Assembly: GCA_965285935.1 (NCBI GenBank)
Contig: OZ260663.1
Coordinates: 100,626,001-100,690,000, forward strand
From: Ophelia neglecta
Lineage: Eukaryota
Length of the DNA stretch: 64,000 nucleotides
Reading direction: 5' to 3'
The notes below the pieces were generated by a model that searched no databases, was not told where the DNA came from, and saw only the letters and a list, made by a program, of their open reading frames with translations. This document shows, in pieces, positions 3,947 through 59,623 of this stretch; positions within the stretch are counted from its first letter, which is position 1, and every line of letters begins with the position of its first letter. The translations under genes were made by a program, and so were the position numbers.

Positions 3947-4010
3947 ATGGCGGCGTATGATCCACGTCATTCGGTGATAACAGACACTATGGCAAGTGAC
4001 CAATCGGAAG
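3947..4010 (+). CDS. NLR first coding exon (MAAYDPRHSVITDTMASDQSE)
   Basis: Acceptor TTTATAG ends 3941, AAGATGG Kozak-like ATG at 3947, donor G|GTAATT at 4011; phase 1 fits the next exon. The whole exon 3942-4010 is 69 bp and also open as a 1-1 internal exon. Confidence 0.65.
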
Positions 4011-25000: not shown

Positions 25001-28000
25001 CTGACCAATTAGAAGGCCAGTCTTAATCACTTCCTCTCTGGTCAGGGCAGGAAAATAATTGAAAGGTAAACTCAGAAGCCATCCAGCCAGCAGACTGTTA
25101 GGGTCAGAAGTTTTCTGTTAGAAATCCGGTATCTTGGGTAAGCCTATTTTAGCTTGCAGTACACAACTATCAGAGTGGAAGTCTATTTTATAATTAGCCA
25201 GTTGTATAGCTACAAATGCAGCATTGAGATATCTTACAGTGTATTCCTTTATTCTCTTGATCTAAATGTGGTTGGACTCTTGATTTGTTGTAGGTTGGTC
25301 AAAAATATCCCAAGTAGATATGGCTAAGGCTCAAGATTGTAGTGAACCTGAATCCCTCCTTTCCCCAAGGGTATGACGAGTGTTCTCTTTAGTTACTATG
25401 TTCTAAACAGCTTATCATTTTGGTTTAGTACTCATTATATAAACTGTTTGAAAGGTTGTATAAGTGTAATAGTAAATGCATGTTGTAACTGGCCAGTATG
25501 TATGATAATGTGTATAACCGAGTAAATGTTAAAATGAGAATGACCGTATGAATGTAATTGTGTTATCTGTGTATGCAGTGATTAATGTGTATTTAATTTG
25601 TTATATTGTTAATTCCTAGTTTCATAATATATTTTCAGGGGTATTAACCTAAATTAACTAGAAAGACCAGTACTTGCATATGACTGTAGTAATGACCTCT
25701 GTCAAAATAAATATTTTGTGAACTAGCTCACCCAGGCGTTATACAAGTCTGTACAAACCCCTAGTTTACACAGGTACATCTGAACGTCTAGGTTCCATGG
25801 GTGAAATTTTTTAGAATTCTATTTCCTTTATAGAAGAAAAACAACAATACGTAATTTATTGACATTAAAGTGGCTAATCTATCGCGATGAGAGTGTAGCA
25901 AGCACCAGTTGAAGTAAGTTGTCCTGTAATGACACTTCCCCCCTTTCAGCCTTCGGTGTTTCCCGAGGGACATATCACAGGAGTACCCTGCTTAGTTGAT
26001 GATAATTTGAAGGAGACATACACTTTAGGTTTTTTATTTGGTTGAAAAGCCTTCCATATAGTACTCATGGATCCACAATATCATTCTCACATATCATGTT
26101 TTCTATCAGCAACCACACCGTTGAAACAAAAGCCGCCGAAAATTCCTTCATTGTCTCCATTGACCGATTCCAACGAAGAAGGGACCAAATCAGAAAATCC
26201 TGCCAATTTGATTCCAGAAGGTAAGAGTATTACTGGTCGGACAAACATCCTGAGGTGTTACAGAACTGAGTGTATTCTGGTTCACTAGAGAACAGTCGTT
26301 TATTCCATGCGTCTACTAAGGCTATGTCTTATTAATATTGACTTTCAGTAGCGCCGGTGACAGGCAAGCGCTTTCTGATACTGATAAACAAACATGTGGT
26401 TTCTTTAATGCTAACATTACAAAATCCAGATTTTTCAGAGCAGACCAACCGAACTTTGAGTATAATTTTAAATCTCGTTAAGCAACGAGATAACACAAAT
26501 TTGTTAGTTTCTATTATGACTTCCCAACTTCCCCCAATTTAAATTGGTTGGACTATCATCTGACCACATGCTACTGAGTTTATGAAACCAGTTCACGGGG
26601 ATATCAGTGACGTTTTCTTCATTTTAGAAATGATGCTCAAATTTAACCCCTAGAAGGAGCATCGTATGTATTTAACTGAAATGACTCCAAAAAAATATAT
26701 AAATAAAATTTTAATATGTTAATATTAAACAGTTACTTGAAGACACGGCCATACCTTTTCAGAACGAGATGTTATAAACCTCAGTTCAAATAATAATTTG
26801 ATTTTGATGATAAAAATGTTGTATTTCATAAAGCATTTCTAATGGTTTTTTAGAACAATTCGAGGAAGGAAATTATCACAGATCACTCAAACAGTTCCAA
26901 CAAAAGGAATCTCGAAATTCAAACCGCCAAATTCAAAGAGTATTCGGTCTTGATGTTGGAAAAGCTGTTTTTTTTATCGCACTTCTATTGGTGCCAAGGA
27001 ACGTCCTGGTCCATGGACAAGAGAAAGTGAAGCAAGGCTTTGAAGAGAAACACGAATGGTACGTCGATCTGCCTAGTCTGTTTACATCTGATAAAAAGGC
27101 AACTCACTCTCACAGAGTGCTGATTATCGGAGCCGCCGGCTCCGGAAAGAGTACGTTGGTCCAACATGCATGTGAACAATGGGGTCAAGGAAAATTATGG
27201 ACAGAATTCCGTTATGTTTTCAAATTGACTTGCCGACACTTTAAATCGATGGTCGAGAACAAAACTCAAATAAGCATGCTGGATTTACTTATAAATGAAG
27301 GTCCAGAAGAATCGAATGATAAAGAAAGGATCGCACGGGAAGAATTGTTCTGCAACCAGAAAGACATTCTGGTTGTTGTTGATGGCATAGATGAATTGTC
27401 CGGCTGGACTGAATTCACCCCAGGTGAAGGTCCTCCTATCAGGAACATGCACAAAGCTGGAGGTATCCTTGAACTCATCAACAGTTTACTGGTTGGAAAT
27501 CTGATGGAAATATGTACTGTATTGTTTACATCAAGGCCCATTGATAAGATTGACCCTGATACATTTGATAAGACAGTCAAAATATTCGGGTTCAGTAGGA
27601 CTTCCATCGAGAAGTGCATTCTAGCTCTAGCAAAAGGGAATCCAGATAAACAGAAGACTGTTTTAGAATATCTAGATCATCGACCACAGTTGTATTTGTT
27701 CTGCACCCTGCCGCTTGGATGCATCATGACAGGGCGAGTAGTATTAGATGAACTGAGTCTCAGTCCTGAGGGCCTACAGGAACACGAAGTTATCAACTGT
27801 GCAACAATACTTTATATCTTTGTTCTTCTGAAATTCCTCAATAGACGCGGAAAACAAACAATAGGCATTAGGGACAGGTTTGAAGGTGTCTTTGTGTGGT
27901 GCGAAACATTATTGAAAATGATGAAACTGGCAGCTTGGGGTATGCTTCAAAATTCACCGAGTATTATATTCAGCAGTCAAGCACTGAGAGAGCACGCCAT

Positions 28001-31000
28001 TAACGAAAATGATCTTCCATGCGGACTCCTGGACATTACATCCGGCGACAAAAACGTCATCAGCGAGCTGGAGTACACAACCGCCTCGTTTGTTCATTTC
28101 ACAATCCAGGAATTTCTGACCGCCCTGCAAATTGCCATCACGTGGAAGCCAGCCGACATCAAAATGATAACCAGTCGTAAAGCCTCTCACAATTTTAACA
28201 TGGTTCTCCTGTACCTGTCAGGGCTTCTGGGAAATCCACTTGGAGGGAAGCTTATTGGAGCTATTGACGAGAATATATCACCGAAAACTCTTAGCAAGCG
28301 ACTTACCAAGCTGTTTGATACTTTGGTTTTGAAATATGAAGGACGATTTCGGTTCCTACCAACTCTCACCAAAAAAGGAAAAGACAACACTAAACTGGGG
28401 CGACTCCAGCTGCTTCGATGTGCGGCTGAGGGTAACCACAAAGGCATGATTAAAAAGATCGAGCGCTTAGTGCTAAAAGCAGAGGGGACGTTGGATTTGG
28501 CAGACATGCCTGGGGGGCTCCGCCCAGAGCATATGCAGGCTGTGGCTTTCTTTATTCAATGGACAAAGGCAATGCAAACTCTAAGGTAAGTCAACTGCTA
28601 AACACATTGTACTTATATTAATTTCAATGTAATTGCGGTGTGTTAGTCGATAGCAATGATTTACCGACTTTAGTTGTAAGGAAATAACTTAAATAATTTA
28701 ATTTTTTCGCATCTATTGACATTGTGTAGCGATATTGGCCCTTACATATTTAATTTCCAAATAGCATGATAGATGTTTTATTGCTTCTTGAGGGGTTATA
28801 TCCACTGTCCCCCGTTGATCGTCTTAAATCAAAGCTTAATTTATTTTATATAAACCGCTCTTGTGTGCTCGTAACTTTTCTGATGATCACTGCATGTCGA
28901 TTTACAAGTTGTATTTGCATCCCTTCATTATTAATGGACCAATTACTCCTATTTTTTCTTTATCCCTGGTATGTGAGCATTTATAACTGTGCGCATACTC
29001 TGTTTTCTATGGATATTGTCATTGCTTTGCTGTGAAAAGGAAGCTTTTCTCTGTATTTGCTGTTGCCATGCCCCCCCCCCCAGCCGCCCCCCCCCCCACA
29101 CACTCTGTTATTTTTTCTATGTGTTCAACATTTACAACGTTATTATGTATGAATCATACTGACGTTTATTTTCGTACGTTGAATCTAATCTTTACAGCAT
29201 AGTTTTTTAAATGTTTACCTTTGATGAACTCAATGGATTGTGTATGTGTTTGCAACTTGTAATCACCTGCCTTTATCCTTCCCAAGTGAGTTTGTCATCC
29301 CCCACACCCCCCCCCCCCCATCCACCCTTCACCCCCTATCCCGGTCATTGGCTATAAGGCCTTCAACACACACGAATGACCTAAGCTAATTCTTTCTGCA
29401 TTTTAACTGAGACAAACACCTCCAACGTGTCACAGCATTATATGACTGATGAACCTCCTACGTCTACTAGAAAGAGAAGGATGGCTATAGTACATCGTAG
29501 TCTCGAGTAGTCTGTCACGTGCCTTGGAAACAGTCTTCGGTATTCTCTCATATGGTCAGTGCGGAGGTCTGGCACATGTCTGGTGAACACGATTGGCTTC
29601 CTCGGCAGTGTTACACATGACTGGTGACCACACTGAGCACCCTCGGTAGACTTATACAAGAGTGATGACCACCTTTTGCTCCGTCGGTAGTTTGGCGCAT
29701 GACTTGTTAACCAGTAGGGCCACTCTGTTGGCTCCCTCGGCATGACTAGTCACATGACTAATGACCCTTCTTGACCCCCTCGGCTGTCTGACACATCACA
29801 TCCTTGGCTATCTCGGTAGCCTGACACACGACACATGGCTTATGACTCCCGTGGATCTCTTGGTAATCCGACACATGGCCAATCCACCCTCTAGGCTCCC
29901 TAGATAGTGTGACGAATGACTGTTGACTCCCGTGGCTGCCTTGGTAGTTTGACACATGACCAATCAATCCTCTTGGCGCCCACGGTAGTGTAACATATAA
30001 CTGCTGACCCCTTTGGCTGGCTCATTAGTCTGACACAGGACCTATCAACCCACATGGTTCCTATGGTAGTGTGACATATAACTGTTGAAACCCTTCGCTC
30101 CCTCGTTGTCTGACACATGACTGACAACCCTGTTGGGCTTTAGATAGCCTGACGCATGACTTGTTAATCTCTTTGATCTTACGTGCTCTGTCACATGACT
30201 GGTGAATCAACATAGCTCCCTCAGTTGTGTAACACACGACTTGGGACCACCCTTGGCTCCCTCGGTAGTCTGGCACATGACTGGTTGCCCCCTTCCCCCC
30301 TGGATCCCTCGGTATGCTGATACATAACAGGTGAGCCCCTTTGGCCACATCGGTAGTCTGATACATGATTTTTAAATATTTTGGCTCCTAAATAGTGAGA
30401 CCCATGACGTGTGATCCCCGTTGTAGTCAGGCACATGGCATGTACCCACCCCCCTCCGGCCCATCTGTAGTCTAACACATGACTGGTGTCCCCTTTGCTC
30501 CTTCGGTAGTCGAACACATGACTTGCGAACCCCCTTGGCCCCCTCGGATGTTTGACACATGACTGGTGACCCCATGACCCCATCGGTAGACTAACACATG
30601 ATTTACCCCCTTGACCCAAATGGACTCGGACTGGCTCCCTCTGCAGTCTGTAATATTACTCCTGATCCCCTTGGCTCCGTCTGAAGTTTGACACGCGACT
30701 GATGACCCCCTTTGGCTCCCTCTGTTGTCTGATACACGATTTGTGACCCTCTTTGGTTCTCTCGGTAGCCTGACACATGGCAGGTTACTCCTCTTTGTAA
30801 CTCGCGGTAGTCTGACGCGTATTTTATCAACCCCCTTAGCTCCCTCGGTAGTCTGACTTTTGACTGGTGACCCCCTTAACTCCCTCGGTAGTGTGACACA
30901 TTACCAATCAACCACCTAGGCTCCCTCGCTTATATGACACATTGCTGACCCCATTGGCCACTCGCCTGTGTCACATGACCAATCAATCCCCTTGGCCCCT

Positions 31001-34000
31001 CGGTAGTCCGACACATGACTGGTGGCGCCCTTAGCTCCCTTTGTAGCCTGATACATGACTGGTGATCCCCTTAGCTTCCTCGTAGTCTGTCACATGCCTG
31101 GTGATCCCCGGGGCTAACTCGGCAATCTGACCAACCGCTTTGGCCCGCTCTATAGTCTGACACATGACTGACGGCCCCCTCGGAATTCAGACACATGACT
31201 GATCAACCCCCTTGACCCCTTCGGTACTCAGACGCATGACATTTTTCCACTCGGTAGTCTGTCACATGACTGGTGATCCCGTTAGAAGGACCAAACCACC
31301 ACCACACAATCCCCCTTACCCCACCCCAGCCCCCAATCCCATAAATATCCATATGTCAGATATATATGACATGTGGGTAGGCTACGTTGTTTTTACCTGC
31401 AATGTATTATGATGCACTTAACTTGGTTGACCCCTAATGTTAACATGCTCAAATATGTTTGACCCGGGCTCTAATTCCTTTATTTACCCGCACTCAACGT
31501 GTCATAGGATATGAAGCAATTAATCTCAGACTTTACAATATTCTTGCAAGCAATACATTGATGTTACAAATCTCATGTGCTTAGGCCTACTATAGCCGTA
31601 TATATGCTGTGCTCCCCAAGTTGTGTGTTACTTGTTTATTTTTACACTTTAGAAATTGGGCTTGAATGTTTGTGGATTGTTTCCTCTCGAATTTGATAAT
31701 GACTTTTGCCAAACTATGATAAACAAAACTAATTTACCTTTGAAATGGCTGTGGTCACCCAATCCTCTCAATAATTCATATTATTATTTTAACGTTGGCT
31801 GTAACTTTATTTATCCTTGTTGATTTACAGGACCTCGGTAGAAGAAAACAAATGAAGTACCCACAGAACACGCTTTCATAATGATATTTGTGTCACTTGG
31901 TCATACGTATATGATTCAAATACATATATTTGCGATAGGCATAGTCAATACTTGCAGATTGGAGAAGCAGTACTGTGTCAGTTTGATGAGGATGATAACT
32001 CCCGAGAACCAGGGCCGTCTGGTACCTCTGTTAGACGGGTGTGTGTTAAAGAGAGGGGAGGACGTAGACACAGAGCGAGGTGGGGAGTTTGATCTCCAGG
32101 GTATGACACTGACGGTGGAGGACCTCCAAGGAGTGGCCCAGTATGTCACACACTCCACGGATATATCCCGCCTCATGTAAGTCAAATGAAGTTCCTGATT
32201 AACATATTCTTAGATTTTTTACACATGCTGTGATTCTACTTTGATGTCTTATTTCATGTTAATCGTTTTGTTCTACTATAGTCGCGCATTTCAATTCATT
32301 CCCATTTCTCAACCAATATTGATCACCAGTATATAGTAGGTCAGACTTTAGAAAATTCTTGCAAGCAATACATTGATGTTACAAATCTCATGTGCTTAGG
32401 CCTACTATTGCCGTATATATGCTGTGCTCCCCAAGTTGTGTGTTACTTGATTTTTTTTACACTTTAGAAATTGGGCTTGAATGTTTGGGGATTGTTTCCT
32501 CTCGAATTTAATAATGCCTTATATATATAATTATGCATTGTCTCCCTTCTATCAACTACTGGCTTTTGTTAAGTTTTACAGTTGCTATATTGTTAGAGCA
32601 TTCCTGGCTATAACTCTGGCATTCATAAAAAGGGATCATAAACACGTGCTTCACACGTGTCATATATATTAACCAAACAACATGTGTTCCACGGAGAGCG
32701 ATATAGAGTTAAGAGGCAAATGACAGTTTTGCCAAACTATGATAAACAAAACTAATTTACCTTTTAAATAGCTGTGGTCACCCAATCCTCTCAATAATTC
32801 ATATTATTATTTTAACGTTGGCTGTAACTTTATTTATCCTTGTTGATTTACAGGACCTCGGTAGAAGAAAACAAAGAAGTACCCGCAGAACACGCTTTCA
32901 TAATGATATTTGTGTCACTTGGTCATACGTATATGATTCAAATACATATATTTGCGATAGGCATAGTCAATACTTGCAGATTGGAGAAGCAGTACTGTGT
33001 CAGTTTGATGAGGATGATAACTCCCGAGAACCAGGGCCGTCTGGTACCTCTGTTAGACGGGTGTGTGTTAAAGAGAGGGGAGGACGTAGACACAGAGCGA
33101 GGTGGGGAGCTTGATCTCCAGGGTATGACACTGACGGTGGAGGACCTCCAAGGAGTGGCCCAGTATGTCACACACTCCACGGATATATCCCGCCTCATGT
33201 AAGTCAAATGAAGTACCTGATTAACATATTCTTAGATTGTTTACACATGCTGTGATTCTACTTTGATGTCTTATTTCATGTTAATCGTTTTGTTCTACTA
33301 TAGTCGCGCATTTCAATTCATTCCCATTTCTCAACCAATATTGATCACCAGTATATAGTAGGTCAGACTTTAGAAAATTCTTGCAAGCAATACATTGATG
33401 TTACAAATCTCATGTGCTTAGGCCTACTATTGCCGTATATATGCTGTGCTCCCCAAGTTGTGTGTTACTTGATTTTTTTTACACTTTAGAAATTGGGCTT
33501 GAATGTTTGGGGATTGTTTCCTCTCGAATTTGATAATGCCTTATATATATAATTATGCATTGTCTCCCTTCTATCAACTACTGGCTTTTGTTAAGTTTTA
33601 CAGTTGCTATATTGTTAGAGCATTCCTGGCTAAAACTCTGGCATTCATAAAAAGGGATTATAAACACGTGCTTCACACGTGTCATATATATTAACCAAAC
33701 AACATGTGTTCCACGAAGAGCGATATAGAGTTAAGGGGCAAATGACAGTTTTGCCAAACTATGATAAACAAAACTAATTTACCTTTGAAATGGCTGTGGT
33801 CACCCAATCCTCTCAATAATTCATATTATTATTTTAACGTTGGCTGTAACTTTATTTATCCTTGTTGATTTACAGGACCTCGGTAGAAGAAAACAAATGA
33901 AGAACCCACAGAACACGCATTTCATAATGATATTTGTGTCACTTGGTCATACGTATATGATTCAAATACATATATTTGCGATAGGCATAGTCAATACTTG

Positions 34001-37000
34001 CAGATTGGAGAAGCAGTACTGTGTCAGATTGATGAGGATGATAACTCCCGAGAACCAAGGCCATCTGGTACCTCTGTTAGACGAATGCGTGTTAGAGAGA
34101 GGGGAGGACGTAGACACAGAGCGAGGTAGCAAGCTTGATCTCCAGGATATGACACTGACGGTGGAGGACATACAAGGAGTTGCCCAGTATGTCAAACACT
34201 CCACGGATGTATCCTGTATCAAGTATGTCAAATGAAGTACCTATTTACCATATTCTTTCACTGTTTACACATACTGTGATTCTATAACTTTGATGTCTTA
34301 TTTCATGTTAATCGTTTTGTTCTACTATAGGCGCATTTATTTCATTTCCATTTCAACCAATATTGATCATCAGTATATAGTAGGTTTACGTCCAGGTCAC
34401 ATATATAGCTTTGCTCTACAAACCAATATCAGATAATTTTTATTACACTGTTCTGACTGATATTTGGCAGCTGTAGGGCACAGTGCACATGTTATTGTTA
34501 TCAAAGTTACAAATTCCAGCCCCATCGCTTCCCTCGGTATTATGAAACCTGACTGGTGAACATCCTTGGCTATCTCGATAGACAAACACATGGCTGAATA
34601 TTCCTCTTGGCTCCCTCGGCAGTCTGATACATGTAACATGATTGATTAACGCCTTTGGGCCCCTCGATAGAGTGACATGTGACGGGTGAATCCCTTGTGC
34701 CCTTCGGTGGTCTAACACATACTGGTAAACCTCCTTGGGACCTTCGGTAGTTTGACACGAATGGTTAAGCAGCTTGGCTCTGTCGGTAGTTTGACACAGG
34801 TTTGGTGAAACCCTTTTGCTCCCTCCGTCGCCTAATATAATATAATTAGTGTACCCCTTAGTCTCCTATGATTATTTGGCACATAACTGATGAAACACCT
34901 TGACACCCTCAGTAGTCTGACACATTACCGATCATCCCTCGATAGTCTTAAACTTGACGGTTGAACCCGCTAGGGCCCCGCGGGAGTCTGACATATGTTA
35001 AGTGAAACCCCTAGTTTCCATCGGCATTCTGGACCATGAAACATGACTGGTGAGCCCCCTTTGCTCCCTCCGTAGTCTGACACACGAATGGGTACCGCCC
35101 TCGCCTGTCTCGTAAGTCTGATACAGAACTTGTGAATCCTTTTGGCTCCCTCAGTTGCCTTGCACATTCCGTGTGTTCTCCTTCCCCTGCCTCGGACCCC
35201 CTTGGGATCCTCGGTATTTTGACAAATGTCAGGTGCCCCTTCTTGGGACGTTCGGTGTTTTAACACATGTCAGATAAATCCCTTGGAACTCTCGATATGT
35301 TAACACATGCCTGCAGAACAAGCCACCCTCCATTAAAGGCAGGTTCATGACTCGTGAACCGTGGCTTCCTCGGTGTTATTATACATGACTAAAGGGCCCT
35401 CTTGGCTCCCGCAATAGTCTGAAACATGACTTGTTAACCCACTTAGCTCTATCAATAGTCTTATTTATCATAGGCTGTCAACCAGACGAGATTCAGGCAG
35501 CACACGTGTGGAATTCGATTGGATCCTGGGCGAATGTTGATTTCATGTTCCGATCCATGTTTTCCGGATTCGAAGCGAAAGCTTGTGTATAGAAAAAATT
35601 AGACTGATGCTGGACTTGTATCAGAAACACTATTTGCTATTGAAACAGAGCTAATATTTGCTTGTACTTTATGCCGCGTGCTTCGCGTCTGCCGCTCCCT
35701 TGCGATTAATCAAGCTTTGTACAGAAGTTAAGCAGTTTACAGTGTAACGGTAGTAGAAATAGAAAAATAAAATGATCTTATAATGGTTCAGTAAGAAGAA
35801 AAACCAAAGCCAATCATTTATTGTAAATATTACGCACAACCTGTAAAAATAAAATTTCAATTATAGTAGCAATACACTGAAGGTATAAATTAATGAAAGA
35901 AGTAGAATAAGCAAGGCATTGGTGAATAAGCTAAGAATGCTCATTTGCCCCATTGCAGGTAATTTACAATAAGTAATTTACGAGTTCAATAAGAGGGCAT
36001 AAACTTTCTGCCACCAGATACTGGAAACAGACAGTAACCAATAAAACGACAACGTTTTTCATGCAGAGGGTAATTCCGGAATCAAAATACGCCTTCAAAT
36101 GCAAAGCTTAAAACAAGCCTAGTGGTAATATTTAGTCGATTATTACTGACGTAGACGTTTAAACGCTTAGACATTTTGCTATGATAATAAATAGTACACA
36201 TCCATGTGGGTTACTTAACTGTTACTACTACTCTTTGGCTATTCAAACCATGTGCACCCATTTATAGGATGTGGAAACACTTAATGTATGCATTAGGGTC
36301 CCCAATGTTGAAACCCATAGGGACTTGATATTGAGGCAAATTGGTTTGGGGACCAATTGGCATAATTATATATGGTTATAGTTTCCAGTGGCTAAACCAA
36401 GAACAAAGGTTTTGTCATAGCTGCACAAACGGCTGATCTAGGTAGTCCCATTGGTTGTAATTTTATATACGACCAGATAGACTGACATTAAGACTGACAA
36501 ACACACATACGCATCATGCACTATTTCACATATGTATATTTACATATTAGTGACAGCGGTGAAACCCAGGTCATAGTGGGCTAGAGCTGAGTGATCTTTG
36601 AGCAACTGACACGAACAAATATGCGACAATAATGACCAGCCCCACAATTGGACCATATAATTGTACAAAGCGAAGTTGTTATCACCCTTTAGGCACACAT
36701 ATGCGATGCTTTACTCGATGTTCTTTAATTTAACTTGACTTTTAATCTCGAGCCTCGAATATTCTTATCGATATTCTGCAAAAGGACACCCTCGATCACA
36801 AGTATGCTGTAGTCTGTTTCTGTTTATCGCTGCTATACTCACGTTTGAACTTTGCACTTGTGAATGTTTGCGCGCGATCCTTCTAAGATCTGAGATATCA
36901 TTTTTGTCGATATTTAGGTTAGCATATTTTATGCTAGGCCCTCTGTGCATTGTGTGATCTCAGTGAGATAGTGTATCAGTGTTTATGGAAATTGGCATAC

Positions 37001-40000
37001 TATGTTTTACAACATACTATTCTTCTTTTGTGGTCTCACATTCTATAAATGTCCTCAAAAGACACTATGTCTTTATATAACAGTGACATATATATTATCT
37101 AAATTGATGGGAATAAGGCGTATCTGACAGAAACATAGTCAATAGCGATGCCTAGATTCCTCTTATGTGACTTACATATTATACCCTTAACTTCCTTCTG
37201 ATTTGCCTTCCAGCTTGAGAGGGAACAATATTACAGATCAGGGGATGGAGAGTCTGGGCTCCGCTCTGAAGGTCACAACATCCCTGAAGGATCTTGTGTA
37301 AGTCTAATATCCACATTCATCGAATTGTGCAAAAAACACGTATTGTCTATGACCTTATTGTTCTTTAACAGCAGACTCGTGCCACAATAAATTACGTTAT
37401 ATATGAGTAACCCGTGTAAAAAGACGAGCATAAGACGAATCTGACCGAATCCAAATCCAAGGAGACGAGTTGATTCCTGTTATGTAACTAAATACTATAC
37501 ACATCACTCTAAATTATTATTTACTTTCCAGCTTAAGCCAGACCAATTTAACAGATCAGGGTGTTCAGTGGCTGGCTTCCGCTCTTGGGGTGAATACCTC
37601 TTTGATTGTAATAAGGTTAGTATCACACTGTCTACATTCAGCTCTCTCCAAAAGAAGATATTTTTTAAGTACGAGGATTCATTGTCCGTATTGGCATTGA
37701 AACATCGCAGTTAGTGTTAGATTAATATGTGTTTTTCATCTTGTATATTCTTTGTATGCAACCCGATAATAGTATGTAACTTACTTCTTTGTGTTATGTG
37801 CGTAAACAAGGAATTTTCAAGAAGTAACGAACTGGTATATCTAACATTATTTACAGGGATTTATTTAGAATTCGGACAATATTTATATTAGCATTTATTA
37901 CATAATTTACTTTAAAGAGTGTGTTTTATAGGCCTGAATATGGAAGGATGATAGCGTATCGGCTGGGCTATGTACTGGCCTTCCCCTTGGCAATAGGGAA
38001 TTTTTATTCCATTGTTCTGACTGATATTTGACATCTATAGGGCACAGAACACCCCTCCGCCGTTTGCGGTGGACCACAAAATCCAACATTGTATATTGCT
38101 CTATGTTGTCCTCGCCAGGCGCAACCAGCGTGTTATTTTTTTTTACTAGTTTGCTTTGTGCTTTGACTTTCACCATGGAACACTGTAGACAACATTGGAA
38201 GTAATAGTTATCTTTTTTATTTCTTTACTTATTTACACTTTGGAAACTGGGGATTAATGTTTGTGGATTGTTTTATATAAAAATAACATGGCGTTATATG
38301 GGTTCAGTAAGAAGTAAAAGCAGATTTTTTTTGTAAATATTACACACCATATATTAAAAAATAAAATTCATAAAGTATAATAGCAATACACTGAATGTAT
38401 AAATTAATGAAAGGAGTGGAATTATCAAAGCATTTAGGGAAGAAGCTAAGAGTGCTTCTTTCATTACAATTAATTTGTAATAAGCTCTTTACAAGTGCAA
38501 TACGAGAGCATAAACAGTAATGGCTCATATAGTTGCGAATTTTCTGCCACACGAACATAGCCTCCGATACAGGAAACAAACTGTGAGCAATAAAACAACA
38601 ACGTTTTTCATGCAGCAGGAAATTCGGTAAATGAAAATACTCTGTCCGTCACATGCAAAGCTTAAAACAAACTTGGAATAATAATTTGTTGTTTATTGCT
38701 GACGAAGACGTATAATATCGTGGACGAAGTTCATGACAATGTAATCACGTTTGATAATAAAACTGACACTTTGATGCCGGCTACTTAACTTTTATCTAGC
38801 TACTCAAACCATGTGCACCCATAAATAGGACGTGGAAAACCTTAATTTATGTATAAGGGGCCCTTATGTTCAAACCCATAGCAAATTGATATTGAGGCAA
38901 ATTGTATTTGAACCAATTTGCTTAAGTAAATGTGGCTATATTTGCCAGCTGCTAAACCAAGAACAAAGGTTTTTATCACAGTTGCACAAACGGCTGATCT
39001 AGGTAGTCCCATTGGTTTTTTTTTATATACAACCAGATAGACTGACATAAAGACTGACAAACACACATACACATCAGTGCACAGCGGTTAAACCCAGGTC
39101 ATAGTGGGCGAGAGCTGAGTGGTTTTGTAGCAACTAACACAAACAAATATGCGACAATAATGACCAGCCCCACAATTTGACCATATAATTGTACAAACGA
39201 AGTTGTTATCACCCTAGGTACACATATGCGGTGATTTACTTGTATTTTTTAACTTATCTTGACTTTTAATCTCGAACCTCGAATATTCTTATCGATATTC
39301 TGCAAAAGGACACCCTCGATCACAAGTATGCTGTAGTATGTGTCTGTTAATGGCTGCTATACTCACGTTTGAACTTTGCACTTGTGAATGTTTGCGCGCG
39401 ATCCTTCTAAGATCTGAGATATCATTTTTGTCGATATTTAGGTTAGCATATTTTATGCTAGGCCCTCTGTGCATTGTGTGATCTCAATGAGATAGTGTAT
39501 CAATGTTTATGGAAATTGGCATACTATTTTTTACAACATACTATTCTTCTATTGTGGTCTCACATTCTATAAATGTCCTCAAAAGACACTCTGTCTTTAT
39601 ATAACAGTGACATATATATTATCTTATTTGATGGGAATAAGGCGTATCTGACAGAAACATAGTCAATAGCGATGCCTAGATTCCTCTTATGTGACTTACA
39701 TATTATACCCTTAACTTCCTTCTGATTTGCCTTCCAGCTTGAGAGGGAACAATATTACAGATCAGGGGATGGAGAGTCTGGGCTCCGCTCTGAAGGTCAC
39801 AACATCCCTGAAGGATCTTGAGTAAGTCTAATATCCACATTCATCGAATTGTGAAAGAAACACGTATTGTCTATGACTTTATTTTTCTTTAACAGCAGAC
39901 TCGTGCCACAATAAATTATGTTATATATGAGTAACACGTGTAAACAGACGAGCATATGACGTATCTGACCGAATCCAAATCCAAGGAGACGAGTTGATTC

Positions 40001-43000
40001 CTGTTATGTAACTACATACTATACACATCACTCTACATTATTATTTACTTTCCAGCTTAAGCCAGACCAATATAGCAGATCAGGGTGTTCAGTGGCTGGC
40101 TTCCGCTCTTGGGGTGAATACCTCTTTGACTGTAATAAGGTAAGTATCACACTGTCTACATTCAGCCCTCTCCAAAAGAAGATATTTTTTAAGTACGAGG
40201 GTTTATTGTCCGTATTGGCATTTAAACATCGCAGTTAATGTTAGATTAATATGTGTTTTTCATCTTGTATATTCTTTGTATGCAACCCGATAATAGTATG
40301 TAACTTTATTCTTTGTGTTATGTGCGTAAACAAGGAATTTTCAAGAAGTAACGAACTGGTATATCTCACATAACATGGTGTCATTTACTACCCCGAGGCA
40401 ATGCCATTCATGACACATAAAACACTGCTTAAGAGTAGCTTAACCCCCCCCCCCCCCCCCCAAACTGCTAAACTATCAAAAGGGACTGATTCGGCAAGTT
40501 CGGCACGTTGGACTCTATGTTATGTACAATGTAAACATCAACATTGCAGATAATGCCCAACAAAATCAACACAGAGAAAACGAGTGTATTAGTTTAGTTT
40601 GGTTTAAACATATTTATTCTGTTGGTTTCCTTTTATAGCTGAGAGCTAATCGAGCAGGGTTGCCAAAGATAAATATACAATATCAAAATACAATATAAAG
40701 TAAGAAGAAATAATTACAACATATAATTGTATACGTATGAAGCGTCAAACCAAAATATAAATGGCAATATGTTAACAAAAAGCTTTCTAAATAAGCCTAA
40801 TGCGATGTAGTACCGGGTGCAAATTTTAGATAAAGCAAAGGAAATGATAAGAAAATAAAGAAAAACCAAAAGTGGGGTAATGGCGGAGATGAATTAAGAA
40901 ACTATTGTAACATAATACCATGAAGAACAGAAGAAACAAAGGGAGATAATCCCAAAAAAATACTATTAACAATAATAAAACAGTAAACAGCAAATAAAAT
41001 TTGGTAACACATGCTTACAAAGTCACGATTTAAATAGAGATGAGAGGAGATGAAAATGAGTTATAAGAGGAGTGAGAAAAACCTTTTCAAGTAGTAATGA
41101 CCATAAGTTGTTGGGTGTTAAAAGCGTTTGGTTTTCTGGAGAAATAGTTGTAGCGCATCGATAATCAAAATGTCCCTTTCCATGTCATGTGGCCAAATAA
41201 GGATAATTTGAGCTGTCATGGATGAGTATTGATACACCTCTACTATGAGAAGAATCGGTTTTTATATCTTTCCTTTCCAGCTTTTGTTAATATATGATAC
41301 TACCTTTTTTGTGCAATATGTTTATTGTTACAATGCAACATTTATAGTTTGGTCATTTATCCATTTGAATATATTTGTACGCTTTCCCAGATCATTTATA
41401 CCCCTTACGTTTAGGGTAGCTATGTTAAACTCATTCACTTTGTCTTTTTGTGCTTTTATTTATTTACCATCTTTACTTTTATTGTCACTTCTAAGTCTTG
41501 GAACCATCAATGCTAATTCAGCCAAGCTTTGACCCAGTAGATTTCTCCTGGCCAATACTTCACCTTGACTTGACTGGTCTGATCAGCTGTGAGCCCTTTT
41601 ATCCATCACATGTTGTTAATTCATGAGAGGCCTGCTCCTCATCTCTCTTCATTGCCTTGGAGTATTGAAAGGCTTGTTCTACACTGTAGAAGTTGTGACC
41701 AAATACATTGAATTCTTCAAAATGAAAGGTGGATAGTGGATCTTCTTTTTCACTAATGTCAATAGATTTCACACTGTTACATGTTTACATTCACTTTTGA
41801 AGCAGTTTGTGCAGAGTTTCTGCCTTGCAAACGTAACTTGTCCGTTATGGAAAATTCTGTCATCATTGTCACCAATTTTTGAATGCCTGGGCAACGGGTT
41901 TTTTTTAGCTCATCTATATACACAATCCGGTCACCAATGAACCAGTCAGACATTTTCTTTGTAACAGTTTTACGAGCAATTATATACTGCATTGTTTTGA
42001 TCAGTACACCTTTCTGCTCTAGGTATTGCGTAAGCGAGTCATTTTCTTTTTAACTGTCAAAGGTATATCTTTGACAGTTAATTTTGTGAATTTATCATCA
42101 GGACTAGTCAAACCAGCCCGGAAGGAATTGCCACTACATTAATCTATGAGCTGGCCATCAATGTTGATTTTCACAGATAGAAATTTTACTTTTGCTTGTG
42201 CGTTCTTGACATACACTCTGTACAGCCCCTTTATGAGGAAGGAGCATGCGCGAGAGGTGGCACACGTTTAAACAGGAGCTCTTAAAACTAGCCTCATTAA
42301 CCACTCAAGGATGGAATAAGATCCCAAAAATTCGAGACCACGAGGAATGTAAATATAGTGTTCATCAGGTTGTAGTGTTATTTGTAGATGTAAGATATGT
42401 GGATAATCATGCCCACTACCCGAAAGGAGTCCGAACGGGCAAAGGAACATGAGACTTCTACTGAAGAAGAAGGTGACACGTCCATGGATATCAAGACTGA
42501 CATGATTACGCTGAGCACATCAGAGCTCAACAATCTGGTCTCCGATGCCGTGAATGCTGCTGTCAAAGCAGCCAGTGTTACACTGTTGACTGGCATTAAC
42601 GAGAAGTTAAGTATGCTTGAGACCAAGGTTAACAATCTTGAATCTAGTAGCTCCCAAACAGAAGACGACATCAACGAGCTCAAGTTGACCGTGACGAAAC
42701 AAGACCGGCTAATTAACAATCTGCTTAAACGTATGTCCCAATCTGAGGTCAACCACAATGACCTCGAAGCATGGGCGAGGAAGTCGACAATCAGAATATC
42801 TTGCCTTCCACTCCAACAAATTCACTCTCTTCATGTGGAGGTTTGTCTTGACCTTTTCAGGAAAATGGGGGTCAAGCTTGTGCCGGGAGACATATGCGTT
42901 GCTCATAGCCTCCTAGGAACAATCACAGATAGGAAAAGACAAGCCTCCTGTGATGCTGTGCAAACTGGTTTGGATTGACACGAAATCGGAGATTCTGCGG

Positions 43001-46000
43001 GCCCGCTGTAATCTCAAGGATTTATCATTGAATATTTTGATATACGAGGATATCACCGCGAAAGACGCAGAAATTCTTCGCACGCTGAAGAGCGGCATTG
43101 GTACGTCTAACGTAGAGAAGGCATGGGCGATAAAGGGCAAGGTGTTTGCCAGTGTCGGTGGCAGAGTGTCCGTGGTGAAGGCTGATAACCTACATGCCAT
43201 TCTTAATGGCTGTGCTTGTGATAATACGCCATCTATATTACACGCATCATTGGAATCATTATACACGGCACAGGTCAGGTATATAAGCCTATGGTTTATG
43301 CTTTGTCGTTATATATTGGAATTTATTAATGGTTCTTCTGGTCCCCCCCCCCCCACCCTCCAATCACACATACACACACACTCACCCAAATGGGTCTGTG
43401 TGACCATTGCTTTTCTTTTTTCTTTTTTCAATTGCTTTGCATTAGTTTTCAAGCACTAGCATGCACTATGTATTCGTTGTTTTTCCTGCTGGATGTAAGT
43501 ACTGATTCTTCCAGCATCCAAGGCCAGAAAGTAAAAACATATTTTGCCTATGTACATATTATTTTGTTCTTATAGTGTTTATTCCCTTCTCACTTTGTTC
43601 CATGGCTCTATTAAAGTGTAGAACGTGTTACAGATGTGTCCTCTCACATTCTTATCACATTATGTGCTCTTTTTGTGATTTACCTACCCATGTTAACTGT
43701 TTGCCGGAAGTTGGCAGAACCGACTCTATTTACACTGAGCATGACGCTAACACATGGTTATGTTCTGCATGCTCAACAGACATTTTCTCTTTCAACCATT
43801 TTATTGAAGACACAGATTTTCTCCTTTTACTTAAGGAGTCTGTTAATGACTTTAAGGCATCAATTGAAGACTTGCAAGGTATTTTGTTTGACCCATTTGA
43901 TTTTAATGTAATTGTAAATTCACCTTTGTGATCCAGATCCAGACATCCGATACTTTAACTCAATGGGTTTGATTTCACCTTCTAATTGCAATTATTACAT
44001 GGAGGATTCATTTATCCAAAAATGTAATGATTTTGGCATTCAAGGGGAGGGTTTCTCTGTGGTCCATTTAAATATCCGAAGGATCCAGAAGAACCTTTAC
44101 GGCTGTGTAAATTATCTTGAGGGATTGCATTTTGACTTTTCCATTATCGGGCTATGAGAGACCTGGCTGAATGGGGACAATTTCGACCTTTTTGACAGTT
44201 TTAATGGAACCCTTGAGACTATCTTTGTTGAGATTGAGGGCAAATCTATCGGCAAAACCAAAAATTCTTTTGTTAATTGATAAGATCTCGACAGCGCTTG
44301 ACCGTGGCGACTGTGTCTTAGGCCTCTTTCAGGATTTTTCGGAGGCCTTCGACACAGTCGACCACGATATTTTGATCTTGAAGCTTGAGAAATACGGCAT
44401 ACGGGGTATGGCCAGTCAGTAGGCTAGGAACTACTTGCGTAATAGAAACAGTTTGTTGATTTAGATGGGTCCCTTTCAGCACTTTTACATATGTCGCACG
44501 GTGTCCCACAGGGTTCAATTCTCGGACCACTTCTCTTCCTACTTTATATAAATGACATGTCCAATGTTTCTAATACATTGTTTCTTTTGTTATTTGCCGA
44601 TGCCTCAAGTGATATTATCACGGGAAGTTATATCGATGACATGATTGCTGCCATGAATGTCGAAATTGAAAAAATTACACTGTGGCTACAAATTAATTAA
44701 TTAACCCTCAATGTGAAGAAACACCCACTTCATTATATTTCATAATCCAAAAAGTAAGATACTTTTTACCCGTGACCTTGTTATTAAGGTTAAAAAGCTG
44801 GAACATGTCAAATCAACTAAATTTCTTGGTGTTACAATTGATGAATCATTAAACTGGAAAGAACACATTCTTACAACTAAGGGTAGAGTATCACGCAGCA
44901 TCGGAATTATTTGAAGAGCTAGGAATTTGTTCAATAGGGATACTCTACCCACCCTGTTTTATTCTTTCATCTACCCCTACATTAGTTACTGCATTGAGGT
45001 CTGGGGTAGGGCATTTGACAAATACTTGGCTCCCCTTAAAAGACTTTAGAAACGAGCACTTCATTTGGTGACTGGATCTTCGAGAAACTCTCCTTCTTTG
45101 CCTCTTTTTATTGATACGAATATTCTCCCACTATGTGAAATCTACAATATAAGTCTCTAGCTTATTATCTATAAATTGTTTAATGGTGTGCTCCAAGAAG
45201 TACTCTCTTCACTTTTCTCAATTCTGATGTCTAAAATCACAAAACTAGACAATCATCCAATCTTCATTTATTACCTCCCAGAACTTCAACTATGCAACGC
45301 ATTCCCATTTACCAAGCAGCCTTGTCCTACAATTTGAGCCTTGATCACATTGATTATAATTGCTCACTACACTCCTAGTTCTTCACTAAAAAGCTATTAT
45401 TATTTCAATCTCTGTAGTTCTATTCATTAAGTCTCGTGCCTTGACAAATGCTGGTGTCACCTCAGATCCAAAGTTTTCTATTTCTGCAGCACTGAGATAA
45501 TCACAAATGTCACTATCCAGAATATTGTGAATCCAAACACAGATATTTATCCGAATGGATGTTTACACATACTACTTTACAAAAATTATTCCTCTACTTC
45601 GCCAAAATAGGGCTAGAAAGGAACAATTTTCTCGAGCATTCTCACAGTGTGTCACCTCTGTTCATTCGTGAATCATTCTCATCGTTATCTGATATATGAC
45701 TGGTGACCCCCCTTGACCCCTCGATAGTCTGACGTATGACTCGTTTACACTCTTGGCTCCCTCGATAGTCTGATACATGACTGGTGACCCCCTTAGCTCC
45801 CTCGCTAGTCTGATACATGACTGGTGACACCCATTGCTCCGTCGGTGGTCTGTCACATGACTGGTGAATCCCCTTGTCTCCCTCGGTAGTCTCATACATG
45901 ACTGGTGATCCCTCTTGACCCCCTTGGTAGTCTGACGTATGACTTGTTTACACTCTTGGCTCCCGGGACAATGTGACGCATGACTGGTGACCCGGTTTGG

Positions 46001-49000
46001 CACCATCGCTAGTCTGTTACACGAATCGTGACCCTCTTTGGCTCCCCAAGTAGCTAGACATACGGCAATTGATCCTCTTTGGCTCCATCGGAGTCTGCCA
46101 CATGGCAGGTGAGCACCTTTGTTCCCTCGGTAATTTGAGACATGACTAACCAACCCCCTAGGCCCCTCGGTCGTCTTACACATCGCTGATGACACCCCGT
46201 AGCCTCTCTGTAGTTAACACATGACTGGAGACCCCCCTTTTCCCTCTATAGTCTGACACATGTGAAACCCCTTGGCTTCCTAGGTTGTCGGATATCTGGC
46301 TGTTAAATCCCGTTGACACCCGTTGGACACATGACTGAAGGGGCTCTTGGCTCCCTTGGAAGCCTTTCACATTACTGGATACTCCCTTGCCTGCCTCGGT
46401 ATTCTGATACATGACTGGAAACCCCTCGGCCTGCCTCGGTAGTCTGGCACATGGCTGGTAACCTCTCTTGGCTCCCTCGGTAGTCAGACACATGATTAAT
46501 CAACTCTTTTGGCCCATCGATAGTCATGCATCACATGTTTATCCTCTTGACCCCTCAGTCGTCTGATACATAACTGGAAACCCCATTAGCTCCTTCGGTA
46601 GTCTAATACATGAGTGATATCCCCCCTTGTCGCCCTCTGTAGTTTTACGCAGGACTTTTTTATCCTCAGGGCCCCTCTGCAGTTTGGTACATGGCAGGTG
46701 ACCCCCTTGGCTCCCTCGGTAGTTAGACACATGACCAATCAACCCCTAGGTTCCCTCGGTAGTCTGACCCATGACTGATGACACCCCTTGGCTTCTATGT
46801 AGTTAACTCATGACTTGTGACCCCTTTAGCTCCATAGGTAATATAAAAAGTTACAGGTGACATCCCTCGGCTCCCTTGGTAGTCTGACACATGACTTGCT
46901 AACCCTCTTGCACCTCTGCACATGACTGGCGACCTCCTTGAATCCCTAGGTAGTATGACACATGAGAGGTGAACCCCTTGTCCTCTCAGGTTGTCTTATT
47001 CATCACTAGTAACCCCCTTACCTCCCTCGATAGTCTGATACATAACTGATGATCCCCTTTGGCTTCATCGGTAGTTTGACGCATGGCTTGTTTACCCTCA
47101 GGACCCCTCTCTGGTTTGATCTATGACTGACAAAACCCCCGTGGCTGCCTCGGTAGCATGTTACATGGCTGGCCCCCATTCGTTCCCTCAATGGATTGAC
47201 CCTTAAGTGGTGCTTCCCCTGGCTCCATCGGTAGTAAATTGCATGACTGAAGAACCCATTTAACTCCCTCGGTGGTCTGACATATGGCTGGGGACACGCA
47301 TTTGCTCCCTCGGCAGTCTCATACATGACCCATCAACCCCCTTGGCCCCCTCAGTAGTCTTGCTTACACTCATGGCCCCTCTGCAGTGTGATACATGGCA
47401 GGTGACACGCTTTCGCTTCCTCGGTAGTCTGACACATGGCAGGTGACCCCATTAGCTCCCTTGGTAGTGTGACACATGACAATCAACCCCCTAGGCCCCT
47501 CTGTAGTCTTAAACATGACTGGTGAACCCCCTTGGCATCCTCGGTAGTCTGACACCTGCCTTATCAACCCCCCCCCCCTGGTTCCCTCGGTAGTCTGACA
47601 CATGACTGGTGAACCCCTTGTTCCCTCAGTAATCTGGTACATGACTGGTGACCACACTGAACTCCATCGCTAGTCTTATACAAGACTGATTACCCCCTTT
47701 AGCTCCGTCGCTAGAATAACGCATGTCTTGGTTACCCGTAGGGCTACTCTGTAGTTTGACACAAGGCTTACGAAGCCCCCTTAGCTCCCTCGGTAGTCTG
47801 ATACATGACTGCCCCCCCCCCCTCCTCTCTCCCTCTCTTGGCACCCTCGGTAAGATGATACATGACTTGCTACCCCCCGTGGCCGCCTCGGTAGTATGAC
47901 GCGTGACTTGTTTACCATCTTGTCCCCTCTGTAGTCTAATACATGACTGGTAAACCCTCTTTGCTCATCCGGTAGTCTAACACATAGCTGGTGACCCCCG
48001 TGGCTCTCTGGGTAGTCTGACACATGCCTAAACTATACCCTTAGCTCCCTCGGTAGTGCGGCAAGGGACAGTTGGCCCCCGTGGATGCCTTGGTAGTTTG
48101 ACACCTGACCAATCATGCAGGTTGGGATAATGTTAAATGCTATGTGGGCAACCCCCTTGGCTCCCTCGGCAGTGCGACAAAGGACAGTTGGCCCCCTTCG
48201 CTCCCTGGGTAATCTGGCACATGACTGATGGCCCTCTATTGCTCCCGCAGAAGGCTGACACACGACTGACAAACCCCGTTGACTGGTAACCCTCCTTGGC
48301 TCCCTCGGTAGTGTGACACATGACCAATCAACCTCCTAGGCTCCCTCGCTATGCTCACATATACCTGCTGACCCCCCTTGGCTCCTCAGTGGTCTATAAT
48401 ATGACCAATCAACCCCCTTCACTCCCTCTTTAGTCTGATACATGACTGGTGGCCCACTTTGGCTTTCTCGGTAGTCTGTCACATGACTGATGACCCCCTG
48501 ACCCCCTCGGTAGTTTGTCACGTGACTGGTGGCCCCTTTTGAGGGAGCCAAGCTGTTCCCTGTTCTCTGGCAGCATTCTCTCACCATAGTCGGTGAGAAA
48601 ACTGAGTTTAAAAAATAATTAACGACAGTTTATTACATCAACACAATTGTACCATCTGAATAAAGGGTTAAATAGTATTAATGCCAATGTGAAGCAACCT
48701 ACTCCCTACCCCCCCCCCCCACCCCACCCCCCAACATATCTCTCCCAGTTCAATCCAGTAAGTCTCTGACCTTTAGATACTAGTTGATTATCCAATGGCA
48801 TGTACATACTAGTTTATTTTGCTCCCCCTATAAAGAACAGTGTATTCTTTTTGACTGAATGGGTTTGATGTTATCCTCCAGACCCAATCAATTGCGCTGA
48901 AAATGCACTGAATACCGGTGGCCTATTTATTCAATTACTTATTTTAAAGAGCCTGCCGCAGTTTTGATGACATTAATAGTATCTCCGTATATTTGCCAAG

Positions 49001-52000
49001 GTGTTCCCTGGTCTTTCTGGCACTGACCTGTATGCTTTGGACCACAGGTGCGCAGAGCGCCTGTCCGCTGCTGCCTCTGTTTAACTCGTCATGCATGGGT
49101 GGCCGCGGGAGGCCGTGTCGCGTGTTTGCGCGCATCGTATGGCTCTCTGCCTACTTACCAGTCTCTTGACGTTTTAGACTTGGTGACTCATCGGACAAAT
49201 CGCATCTTATATCAGTTAATTATAGGTATAGTAACTCCCTCATCTCATCATCTCATATTTTATCCCACGCATATTTGTAAATACTGCCTTAATGCATTAT
49301 ATGGAAAATACCCAGTTTAAGCACTAGGCTTCTGTAAAATCCAAATTATGTATAATAATATGTTTAAACCAGGTTTTTCCATTTGACAGTTTTATTGTCT
49401 ATATGAAACATATAAAGTATTAATGTGATCGAACGTAATCCTCAAAATTGATCAAAACTCAAGTTAATATGAAAAAATAAATATATTGACCCATAGCAGT
49501 TCATAGTGAATTTGACAGTAGCAATATTGTGTATGCTTATGTACACGCTGTCCGTGGAGGTATTCACAATACAATTCCCTAACGCAGCAGAGGCAATGCC
49601 TTGCACAGACCCCGACCCTTAACTGTGGATGCAAGAAGATCCCCCCCCCCCCTCCCACCACAAAGGGAATACAATTCCAAACCTCTAAGCGAGCATTAAT
49701 GTCTTAAAACGTCAATAGGCAGCAACCCCTTTGGCTCCCTCTGTTGTCTGATACACGATTGGTGACCCCCTTTGGCTCCCTCTGTTGTCTGATACACGAT
49801 TGATGACCCCCTTTGGCTCCCTCTGTTGTCTGATACACGATTGGTGACCCCCTTTGGCTCCCTCTGTTGTCTGATACACGATTGGTGACCCCCTTTGGCT
49901 CCCTCTGTTGTCTGATACACGATTGGTGACCCCCTTTGGCTCCCTCTGTTGTCTGATACACGATTGATGACCCCCTTTGGCTCCCTCTGTTGTCTGATAC
50001 ACCATTGGTGACCCCCTTTGGCTCCCTCTGTTGTCTGATACACGATTGATGACCCCCTTTGGCTCCCTCTGTTGTCTGATACACGATTGGTGACCCCCTT
50101 TGGCTCCCTCTGTTGTCTGATACACGATTGGTGACCCCCTTTGGCTCCCTCTGTTGTCTGATACACGATTGGTGACCCCCTTTGGCTCCCTCTGTTGTCT
50201 GATACACGATTGATGACCCCCTTTGGCTCCCTCTGTTGTCTGATACACCATTGGTGACCCCCTTTGGCTCCCTCTGTTGTCTGATACACCATTGGTGACC
50301 CCCTTTGGCTCCCTTGGGAGCCTGACACATGGAGGGTGACCCCCCTTTGGATCTCACGGTAGTCTGACACTTCGAGTTATCAACCCCCTAAGCCCGGTAG
50401 TGTGACTCTTGACTGGTAACCCCCTTGGCTCCCTCTGTAGTTTGACACATGACCAATCAACCTCCTAAGCTCGCTCGCTAATCTGACACATACCTGCTGA
50501 CCCCCCTTGGGTCCTCAGTAGGCTAGTCTTTAACATGACCAATCTACCCCCTTCGCTCCCTCTTTAGTCTGATACATGACTGGTGACCCACCTTGGCTTG
50601 GTTTCCTCGGTAGTCTGTCAGATGACTGGTGAGCCTGTTAGAGGGAGCCACTCTGTTCCCTGACAGCATTCTCTCACCTAGTAAGTGAGATAACAGAGTT
50701 TAAAAAAATAATAAATGACAGTTGATAACATCAACACAATTGTACCATCTGAAAAAGGGTTAAATAATTTTAATGCCAATGTGAAGCAACCTACCCCCCC
50801 CCCCCTCCCCCTAGACGTAACTCTCTAATTCAATCCAATAGGTGCCTGACCCTTTAAACACTAGTTGATTATACAATGGCATATACAAAATAATTTTTGC
50901 TCCCCCTATAAAGAACAGTGTATTCTTTTTGACTGAATTGGTTTGATGTTATCCTCCAGACCCAAACAATTGCGCTGAAAATGCACTGAATACCGGTGAC
51001 CTATTTATTCAAATACTTATTTTAAAGAGCCTGCCGTAGTTTTGATTACAATAATAGTATCTCCGTATATTTGCCAAGTTGTTCCCTAGTCTTTTATGGC
51101 ACTGACCTGTATGCTTTGGACCACAGGTGCGCAGAGCGCCTGTTCGCTGCTGCCTCTGTTTAACTCGTCATGCATGGGTGGCCGCGGGAGGCCGTGTCGC
51201 GTGTTTGCGCGCATCGTATGGCTCTCTGCATACTTACCAGTTTCTTGACCTTTTAGACTTGGTGACTCATCGGACAAATCGCATCTAATATCAGTTAATT
51301 TTAGGTATAGTAACTCCCTCATCTCATCATCTCATATTTTATCCCACGCATATTTGTAAATACTGCCTTAATGCTTTATATGGAAAATACCCAGTTTAAG
51401 CACTAGGCTTCTGTAAAATCCAAATTATGTATATTAATATGTTTAAACCAGGTTTTTCCATTTGACAGTTTTATTGTCTATATGAAACATATAAAGTATT
51501 CATGTGATCGAACGTAAACCTCAAAATTGATCAAAACTCAAGTTAATATGAAAAAATAAATATATTGACGCATAGCAGTTCAAAGTGAATTTGACAGTAG
51601 CAATATTGTGTACGCTTATGTACACGCTGTCCGTGGACGGTATCCACAATACAATTCCCTAACGCAGCAGAGGCAATGCCTTGCACAGCCCCGACCCTTA
51701 ACTGTGGATGCAAGAAGATCCCCCCCCCCTCCCACCACAAAGGGAATACAATTCCAAACCTCTAAGCGAGCATTAATGTCTTAAAACGTCAATAGGCAGC
51801 AACCCCTGCAGCGTAGGCTACTGGGGACACTGCCTTCAACCGGCGCAGGGCAGATCAATGATTAATATATTACCAATGGTTTCTTTCTTCTTACAGACTG
51901 GAGGAACAATATTGTATTGGTCTGATGAGACTTATAACTCCCGAGAACCAGGCCCGACTGGTACCACTACTGGACACCGCTGTCCTCAAGTCTGGTCACT

Positions 52001-59623: not shown

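Follow-up and report, generated by a model that had tools for sequence, protein, structure and literature searches.

How does a receptor gene built of small, frame-compatible LRR exons come to vary its predicted binding surface: by exchange of exons between genes in the germline, by alternative splicing of a single gene, or by drift? This question is raised by a plus-strand gene of Ophelia neglecta (GCA_965285935.1, contig OZ260663.1, referred to here as C5), for which we analyzed positions 100,626,001-100,690,000, a 64-kb stretch hereafter called the window. The gene belongs to a large NLR family whose paralogs differ in the number and order of phase 2-2 LRR cassettes. We consider it quite probable that unequal crossover and conversion in the germline add, remove and exchange these cassettes, while selection diversifies the predicted ligand-facing residues. 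All of the data come from one assembly, in which near-identical tandem copies could be assembly errors. The way in which an invertebrate with hundreds of NLRs generates diversity in binding is an open question, as is direct contact between the LRRs of animal NLRs and their ligands.

Domain make-up and exon anatomy

The window holds most of one CARD-CARD-CARD-NACHT-LRR (NLR) gene, with exons in the order ATG, CARD1, CARD2, third CARD-like, linker, NACHT-WH-HD2 and LRR exons (Table 1). Analysis of the NACHT exon against Pfam gave NACHT (PF05729) at 86.6 bits, NOD2_WH at 29.7 bits and NLRC4_HD2 only at an E value of 0.034, and a PDB search returned NLRP3 (E = 9e-19) and chain 5irm, NOD2 (E = 1.5e-16). 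The Walker A and B motifs are present (GAAGSGKS and VVVDGIDE). The third CARD-like exon had no Pfam death-fold match. With NACHT, WH, N-terminal death-fold and C-terminal LRR regions, the predicted product is a metazoan NLR. FISNA was absent among the Pfam matches, and the gene ends in a 25-codon terminal exon without B30.2; identity with fish NLR-C/NLR-B30.2, which would bring FISNA and a C-terminal B30.2, was thus ruled out. Word-indexed protein searches returned no match at E = 1e-10, and relatives found with HMMER were at most 35% identical over most of the length. By analogy with other NLRs, the gene would be expressed, sense ligands and signal through its CARDs.

The earlier note on this DNA had counted 11 exons after NACHT, each a multiple of three in length. 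The lengths (219 nt three times, 84 nt seven times and 585 nt once) and the open frames in phase 2-2 bore this out, as they did the phase 1-1 N-terminal exons and the range of first two bases in the split codon (AT, AA, GT, AG, GA and TG). However, one of the 11, E1, lacks a GT donor, and the 11 are not the complete post-NACHT set, as exon H and the terminal exon lie beyond the window. E1, with the boundary TG/TTAAGT, is probably an inherited exon that has died; the same lesion recurs in paralogs d and i, with framework changes in E1 there. The spliced model without E1 is open over 1597 aa. The 84-nt exons read LxxNxI...L..aL..N.sL..L, as in RI-like 28-aa LRRs, and Pfam support on single LRR exons was weak (one of three tested, E = 0.011). 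One LRR per exon had been called common in NLRs, in agreement with the frame-preserving LRR exons described in passages of PMC6642158.

No meaningful Pfam match was obtained for the A/D module. A profile of the A exons scored 14 bits where the NACHT exon ends and 31 bits over the region directly behind HD2 in P0001, a distant intronless homologue. The model of that region of P0001 runs strand-helix-helix-strand-helix, with pLDDT dropping from 87 to 47, and the whole P0001 model (a 34% identical homologue) is closest to NOD2 (E = 5e-23). Exon D folded alone was uninformative (pLDDT 50). Taken together, the profile matches after HD2 and the P0001 model moderately support the reading that A is likely an LRR unit of two rungs, rich in helix, whose usual place is right behind HD2 and which here recurs within the solenoid.

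Table 1. Positions of exons, duplicated segments and repeats in and next to the window
Feature	Position	Strand	Details
First copy of 2645-bp duplication	29..2669	+	99.66% identity with 2674-5314
Parts of first 2645-bp copy	5' exon 1089-1224; ATG exon 1297-1365; CARD1 exon 2197-2490; CARD2 stub 2636-2669	+	
ATG exon	3942..4010	+	69 nt; compatible with phase 1-1
CARD1 exon	4842..5135	+	Phase 1-1; Pfam CARD 27.7 bits, above cut-off (identical first copy scored)
CARD2 exon	5281..5571	+	Phase 1-1; Pfam CARD 19.7 bits, below cut-off
Third CARD-like exon and linker	5961..6353	+	Phase 1-1; CARD-like by eye only
Tandem LTR retrotransposon	9493..25770	+	Intron before linker exon; 3 LTRs, 2 internal copies 99.8% alike
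Linker exon	26110..26220	+	Phase 1-1; in 9/9 paralog upstream regions examined
NACHT-WH-HD2 exon	26854..28585	+	1732 nt; phase 1-2; first LRR rung at end
41-bp intronic minisatellite	29506-31253; about 34536-35413; 45683-48509; 49742-50609	+	
Exon A1	31958..32176	+	219 nt; phase 2-2; helical two-rung LRR module (predicted)
Exon A2	32980..33198	+	219 nt; phase 2-2
Exon A3	34004..34222	+	219 nt; phase 2-2; donor GTATGT
LRR exon B1	37214..37297	+	84 nt; Pfam LRR_6 E = 0.011
LRR exon C1	37532..37615	+	84 nt; donor GTTAGT
LRR exon B2	39738..39821	+	84 nt
LRR exon C2	40056..40139	+	84 nt
Exon D	51897..52481	+	585 nt; three A-like units via internal 186-bp repeat
E1, LRR copy	57561..57644	+	84 nt; TT replacing GT donor
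LRR exon E2	57731..57814	+	84 nt
LRR exon F	59540..59623	+	84 nt
Exon H	64302-64385 (extended coordinates)	+	84 nt; beyond window
Terminal exon	At 73299 (extended coordinates)	+	25 codons; beyond window

Exon strings, duplications and repeats

The 762-Mb assembly contains at least 150 NACHT matches. Two groups were sampled for comparison: of 19 genes at least 81% identical on the query, the first 17, and of about 33 genes at 58-69%, six. Among the 13 close paralogs with full arrays (NACHT 91-99% on the query) 12 distinct LRR exon strings were found, each gene carrying between 5 and 23 intact internal exons and between 2 and 6 D units; for paralogs d and k the stretch stops short of the terminal exon, and their strings may be incomplete. 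The window gene reads AAABCBCD3(e)EFH, others AD5EFH or AAAAD2(e)EFHII, and one gene has 23 exons. Of the 172 exon copies counted across 17 genes, 165 had intact AG and GT at phase 2-2 and 7 were broken; the exon finder sought phase 2-2 copies of known exons, and exons in other phases could escape it. These differing exon strings back, at the DNA level and between genes, the earlier proposal of an accordion-like receptor evolving by unequal crossover. Exon-bearing duplications at least 99% alike were also present in several paralogs. A scan of four distant-paralog stretches (31-33% NACHT) found one LRR exon match, in phase 2-2, too few to generalise.

Several genes departed from the common plan. 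In paralog i (C5 93.47-93.49 Mb) some 3 kb separate the ATG exon from the linker exon, and this interval contains no CARD exon; this is a predicted CARD-less NLR, and the 1-1 phases would permit such in-frame loss of the effector. Close paralog b101646 is broken. Paralogs n and p (C5 3.27-3.32 Mb) end the NACHT exon in a GC donor (AG/GCAAGT), and paralog n has seven tandem 195-nt A exons. A gene with the second type of NACHT, at C12 61.685-61.692 Mb, has three D-type exon ends in tandem, spaced by 3 kb. At C5 102.18-102.23 Mb, D and F copies (98% and 90% like the window's) follow 28 kb without NACHT, and an assembly gap lies within.

Five exon-bearing duplications had been reported for the window and called fresh. 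Periods of 2645, 1022, about 2524, 186 and 170 bp are indeed present, but the 186-bp repeat is internal to one exon (D) and duplicates no exon, and the 2645-bp copy terminates in a 34-nt CARD2 stub, the acceptor of which runs into a stop. Nor are most of them fresh: A1 and A2 are 99.1% alike, A2 and A3 94.5%, the B/C pair 96.3%, the D units 94.1% and the E pair 89.4%, and these arrangements recur in paralogs. The corresponding regions of the best paralogs were mostly closer (96-99%), indicating that most within-gene copies were inherited and not made here.

False tandem joins of haplotypes or repeats during assembly could in principle account for the duplications. The 2645-bp copies (99.7%) and the 7.7-kb retroelement copies (99.8%) occur only here among the paralogs in which the region was seen, as such an origin would predict; the 2645-bp region is single-copy in paralogs a, d and f, and paralogs a and d have a single retrotransposon at the same place. 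Among the contigs listed, none bridged the 2645-bp junction and the loose ends followed its two ordinary continuations; with 38 further pieces outside the list, such a gap carries no weight as evidence. However, the 1022-, 2524-, 186- and 170-bp duplications, 89-99% alike, recur at independent loci, and we regard assembly error as a very improbable explanation of the duplications. The pol frame of the retrotransposon is broken by stops, the same ones in both internal copies, and its tandem state reflects either LTR-LTR unequal crossover or assembly duplication.

The 41-bp minisatellite seems to be private to this NLR family. An 18-mer of its core had 19 exact matches in the genome, and all 19 lay on the sense strand at most 25 kb downstream of a family NACHT. 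It occurs in cassette-sharing genes of either NACHT type, is missing from the three genes that do not share LRR cassettes, and in one paralog spans ~13 kb. A role for the minisatellite as the driver of recombination was unsupported, as most duplication ends fall outside its blocks. An exonless intronic duplication of roughly 2.1 kb (47573-49730 versus 49726-51807) is 80% alike with gaps, and amid it lies a very young 14-copy minisatellite stretch (97%). Decayed LINE-like intron fragments (42394-45400 and 63581-64000) are common to some paralogs and could serve as markers of exchange tracts.

Exchange between genes and change on the LRR face

The closest relative of the window gene changed along its length, being a/h for the A block, c/e for B/C, h around D and i/d from E on. 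In AU tests with 10 genes, a shared tree was rejected for the NACHT, F and terminal segments, and rejection of the D-end tree against the NACHT tree was weak (AU 0.028, SH 0.35). Genes with a NACHT of 64-68% protein identity carried A-F exons and introns 84-99% like the window's, with no second NACHT intervening, and genes with a NACHT exon ~71% identical had CARD and LRR exons and introns in common at 86-100%. The paralog at C5:13.24 Mb, for example, combined a 100% ATG exon, 93-96% CARDs, 87-96% introns, a 94% D end and a 93% D intron with a 71% NACHT; there and at C2:107.74 Mb, CARD exons and introns were 86-100% alike across from the 71% NACHT. NACHT fourfold sites differed by 55-59%, compared with 12-15% for the LRR-flanking introns, in all three such genes. 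By position, the 31 strong D-end matches fell in 13 genes of the window NACHT type, 15 of the other type and 1 without NACHT in the stretch retrieved. The opposite case, a closer NACHT (80-82%) with diverged LRR exons, was found in three genes. As the CARD and LRR flanks are common while the NACHT has diverged, the NACHT exon behaves as an old island. All 6 of the diverged-NACHT genes that were examined, spread over 4 contigs, show this discordance between NACHT and flanks, which also speaks against assembly error.

We then counted minimum changes per site in 104 intact 84-nt exons of 8 classes. The nondegenerate sites of the xxLxLxx codons, which we take to be the concave LRR face, were pooled with the first two split-codon bases; this set, fixed after the per-codon table had been viewed, carried 74 changes at 82 sites, compared with 32 at 121 fourfold sites and 215 at 586 sites in flanking introns. 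Concave codons including the split codon thus had ~3.4 times more changes than fourfold sites. The split bases alone had 18 changes at 16 sites, and the paralog comparison agrees with the earlier placing of a variable split codon at an exposed LRR position. The excess was found only in the distal classes E-J (1.10 per site versus 0.29 at fourfold sites), weakly in J and H; classes B and C had none (5/19 versus 5/28 fourfold), nor did convex exposed sites (0.26 versus 0.29). It persisted after dropping any one class (ratio 2.7-3.8), and none of 2000 random four-codon sets matched the concave rate. With a slightly different codon set, pN at the chosen codons was 0.205 and pS 0.117. Because sites in related paralogs are not independent, as the binomial test assumes, its P values are overstated. 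These observations suggest that diversifying selection has likely acted on the predicted ligand-facing residues.

Could the same pattern arise by neutral instability, with a repeat-rich young family duplicating and decaying by drift within an inherited NLR design? The dead exon E1 is retained in 3 genes, one paralog is broken, the CARD2 stub is of no use, fragments of transposons are numerous, and NLRs in general have the modular layout, all of which such an account would predict. It would not predict that merely 7 of 172 exon copies are broken, that framework nondegenerate sites are constrained (45 changes at 332 sites, 0.14 per site) or that concave sites change about threefold faster than neutral ones, and we find neutral instability quite improbable as the explanation.

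As the LRR introns all interrupt the gene in phase 2 at the same strand position and the N-terminal introns all in phase 1, a crossover within any intron would give an in-frame solenoid. Near-identical introns would supply the homology for crossover and conversion, and the two NACHT types, about 71% alike, would be too diverged to recombine and would remain islands. The variable binding face would be made up of the distal LRR classes, E-J, and the proximal A/B/C/D part is likely a scaffold.

Known modular systems and the question of exon skipping

Passages on zebrafish NLR-B30.2 (NLR-C) genes (bioRxiv 10.1101/027151; PMC11192531) describe hundreds of clustered NLRs with old NACHT exon groups, other parts exchanged across groups by conversion, a variable number of LRRs and shuffled N-terminal exons. 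Distinct NACHT groups with flanks exchanged across them are likewise found in the window family, in which the CARD exons, too, are common across NACHT types. In zebrafish, however, selection acts on the B30.2 surface and the LRRs are called 'not particularly variable' (same sources), whereas here B30.2 and FISNA gave no match and the excess change lies on the LRR concave face. The best reading is that the window gene evolves like zebrafish NLR-B30.2, with the LRR as the variable part.

Human NLR genes are few and their exon number is fixed. For human NOD/NLRC genes, passages of PMC6642158 describe a 28-aa LRR per 84-nt frame-preserving exon with its border at a fixed beta-strand position, a layout that the window gene matches; splicing is demonstrated there, whereas in the window family paralogs differ in exon number, and the solenoid is broken up by repeated helical modules of 219 nt or 186 bp. 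The brown algal LRR-ROCO genes, in the passages available (PMC3341825; PMC11378527), share with the window family phase 2 single-LRR exons, exon shuffling, dead intronic exons and positive selection or excess change at concave residues, and have documented alternative transcripts, but they carry a ROC-COR GTPase and 72-nt exons in place of NACHT and 84-nt exons. Tetrahymena LRR genes are described as phase 2 exon arrays with a 'junction' codon, exon number that varies among in-paralogs and ectopic recombination between genes, as in the window family; they are non-NLR, uniform in exon length and of unknown function. Passages on Capitella teleta (PMC3879445) report 55 NLRs with lineage-specific expansion and domain shuffling, as in the window family, and one gene with a NOD1/2-like multi-exon LRR; they held no exon-level analysis of copy number, exchange or selection. 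Each ingredient (modular LRR exons, phase 2 shuffling, invertebrate NLR expansions) has precedent, and searches of open-licence papers and bioRxiv turned up no invertebrate NLR that combines them, though supplements might hold exon-level analyses of such genes. In each exon of the distal LRR classes the variable surface can be narrowed to five codons, and the effector, NACHT and sensor parts are already set apart in chimeras that occur in nature. This opens the family to direct tests by mapping ligands, surveying haplotypes and sequencing isoforms.

Dscam-like receptors make many isoforms from one locus by splicing. That the window gene does likewise, by combinatorial splicing, had been part of the earlier proposal, along with the claim that every forward skip is stop-free. 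On this reading each gene would skip LRR cassettes in many combinations, and the split codon would add junctional diversity. Indeed, 0 of 66 forward pairs give a stop. However, a phase 2 junction stop requires an upstream exon ending in TA or TG, and only 3 of the 66 pairs are at risk; the probability of no stop was 0.53 if first bases are taken as uniform and 0.38 if they are shuffled. In a set of 16 genes with 1054 skip pairs, 33 pairs were at risk and 3 of these give stops, in 2 genes, and a separate count found 3 stops in 930 pairs with 2.0-7.3 expected. Stop avoidance as a selected trait was therefore rejected, and the splicing part of the earlier proposal, for which it was the one sequence argument, has no support.

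Every cassette is nonetheless frame-compatible, some donors are weak (GTTAGT, GTATGT), an in-frame CA/GTATGT occurs inside 14 of 14 A exons inspected, and LRR exon skipping is described in passages on human NLRs (PMC6642158) and algal ROCOs (PMC11378527). Against this, stop-free skips occur at chance levels, and the exons form ordered, dissimilar cassette classes rather than interchangeable arrays with a visible choice mechanism. We consider combinatorial splicing with many isoforms per gene rather unlikely. Three sequencing runs from one sample covered introns and contained no exon-to-exon joints, and thus behave as DNA. A wider scheme, in which at least 28 genes on several chromosomes form a recombining pool of three modules (1-1 CARDs, two ancient NACHT cores and hypervariable 2-2 LRRs) and exon skipping multiplies the repertoire, the split codon being a junctional residue, appears distinctly unlikely; were it true, an intracellular sensor of an invertebrate would have an analogue of VLR assembly that combines germline change with splicing.

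Some candidate splice sites within exons were also recorded. The AG acceptors inside exon D are in phase 0 and unusable in frame. Some paralog 219-nt A exons use the donor GTTAGT. The donor-like CA/GTATGT lies in frame at nt 183 of the A exons (window 32140/32141), and in A3 nine of its bases run identical to the terminal donor, making possible an A exon 12 residues shorter.
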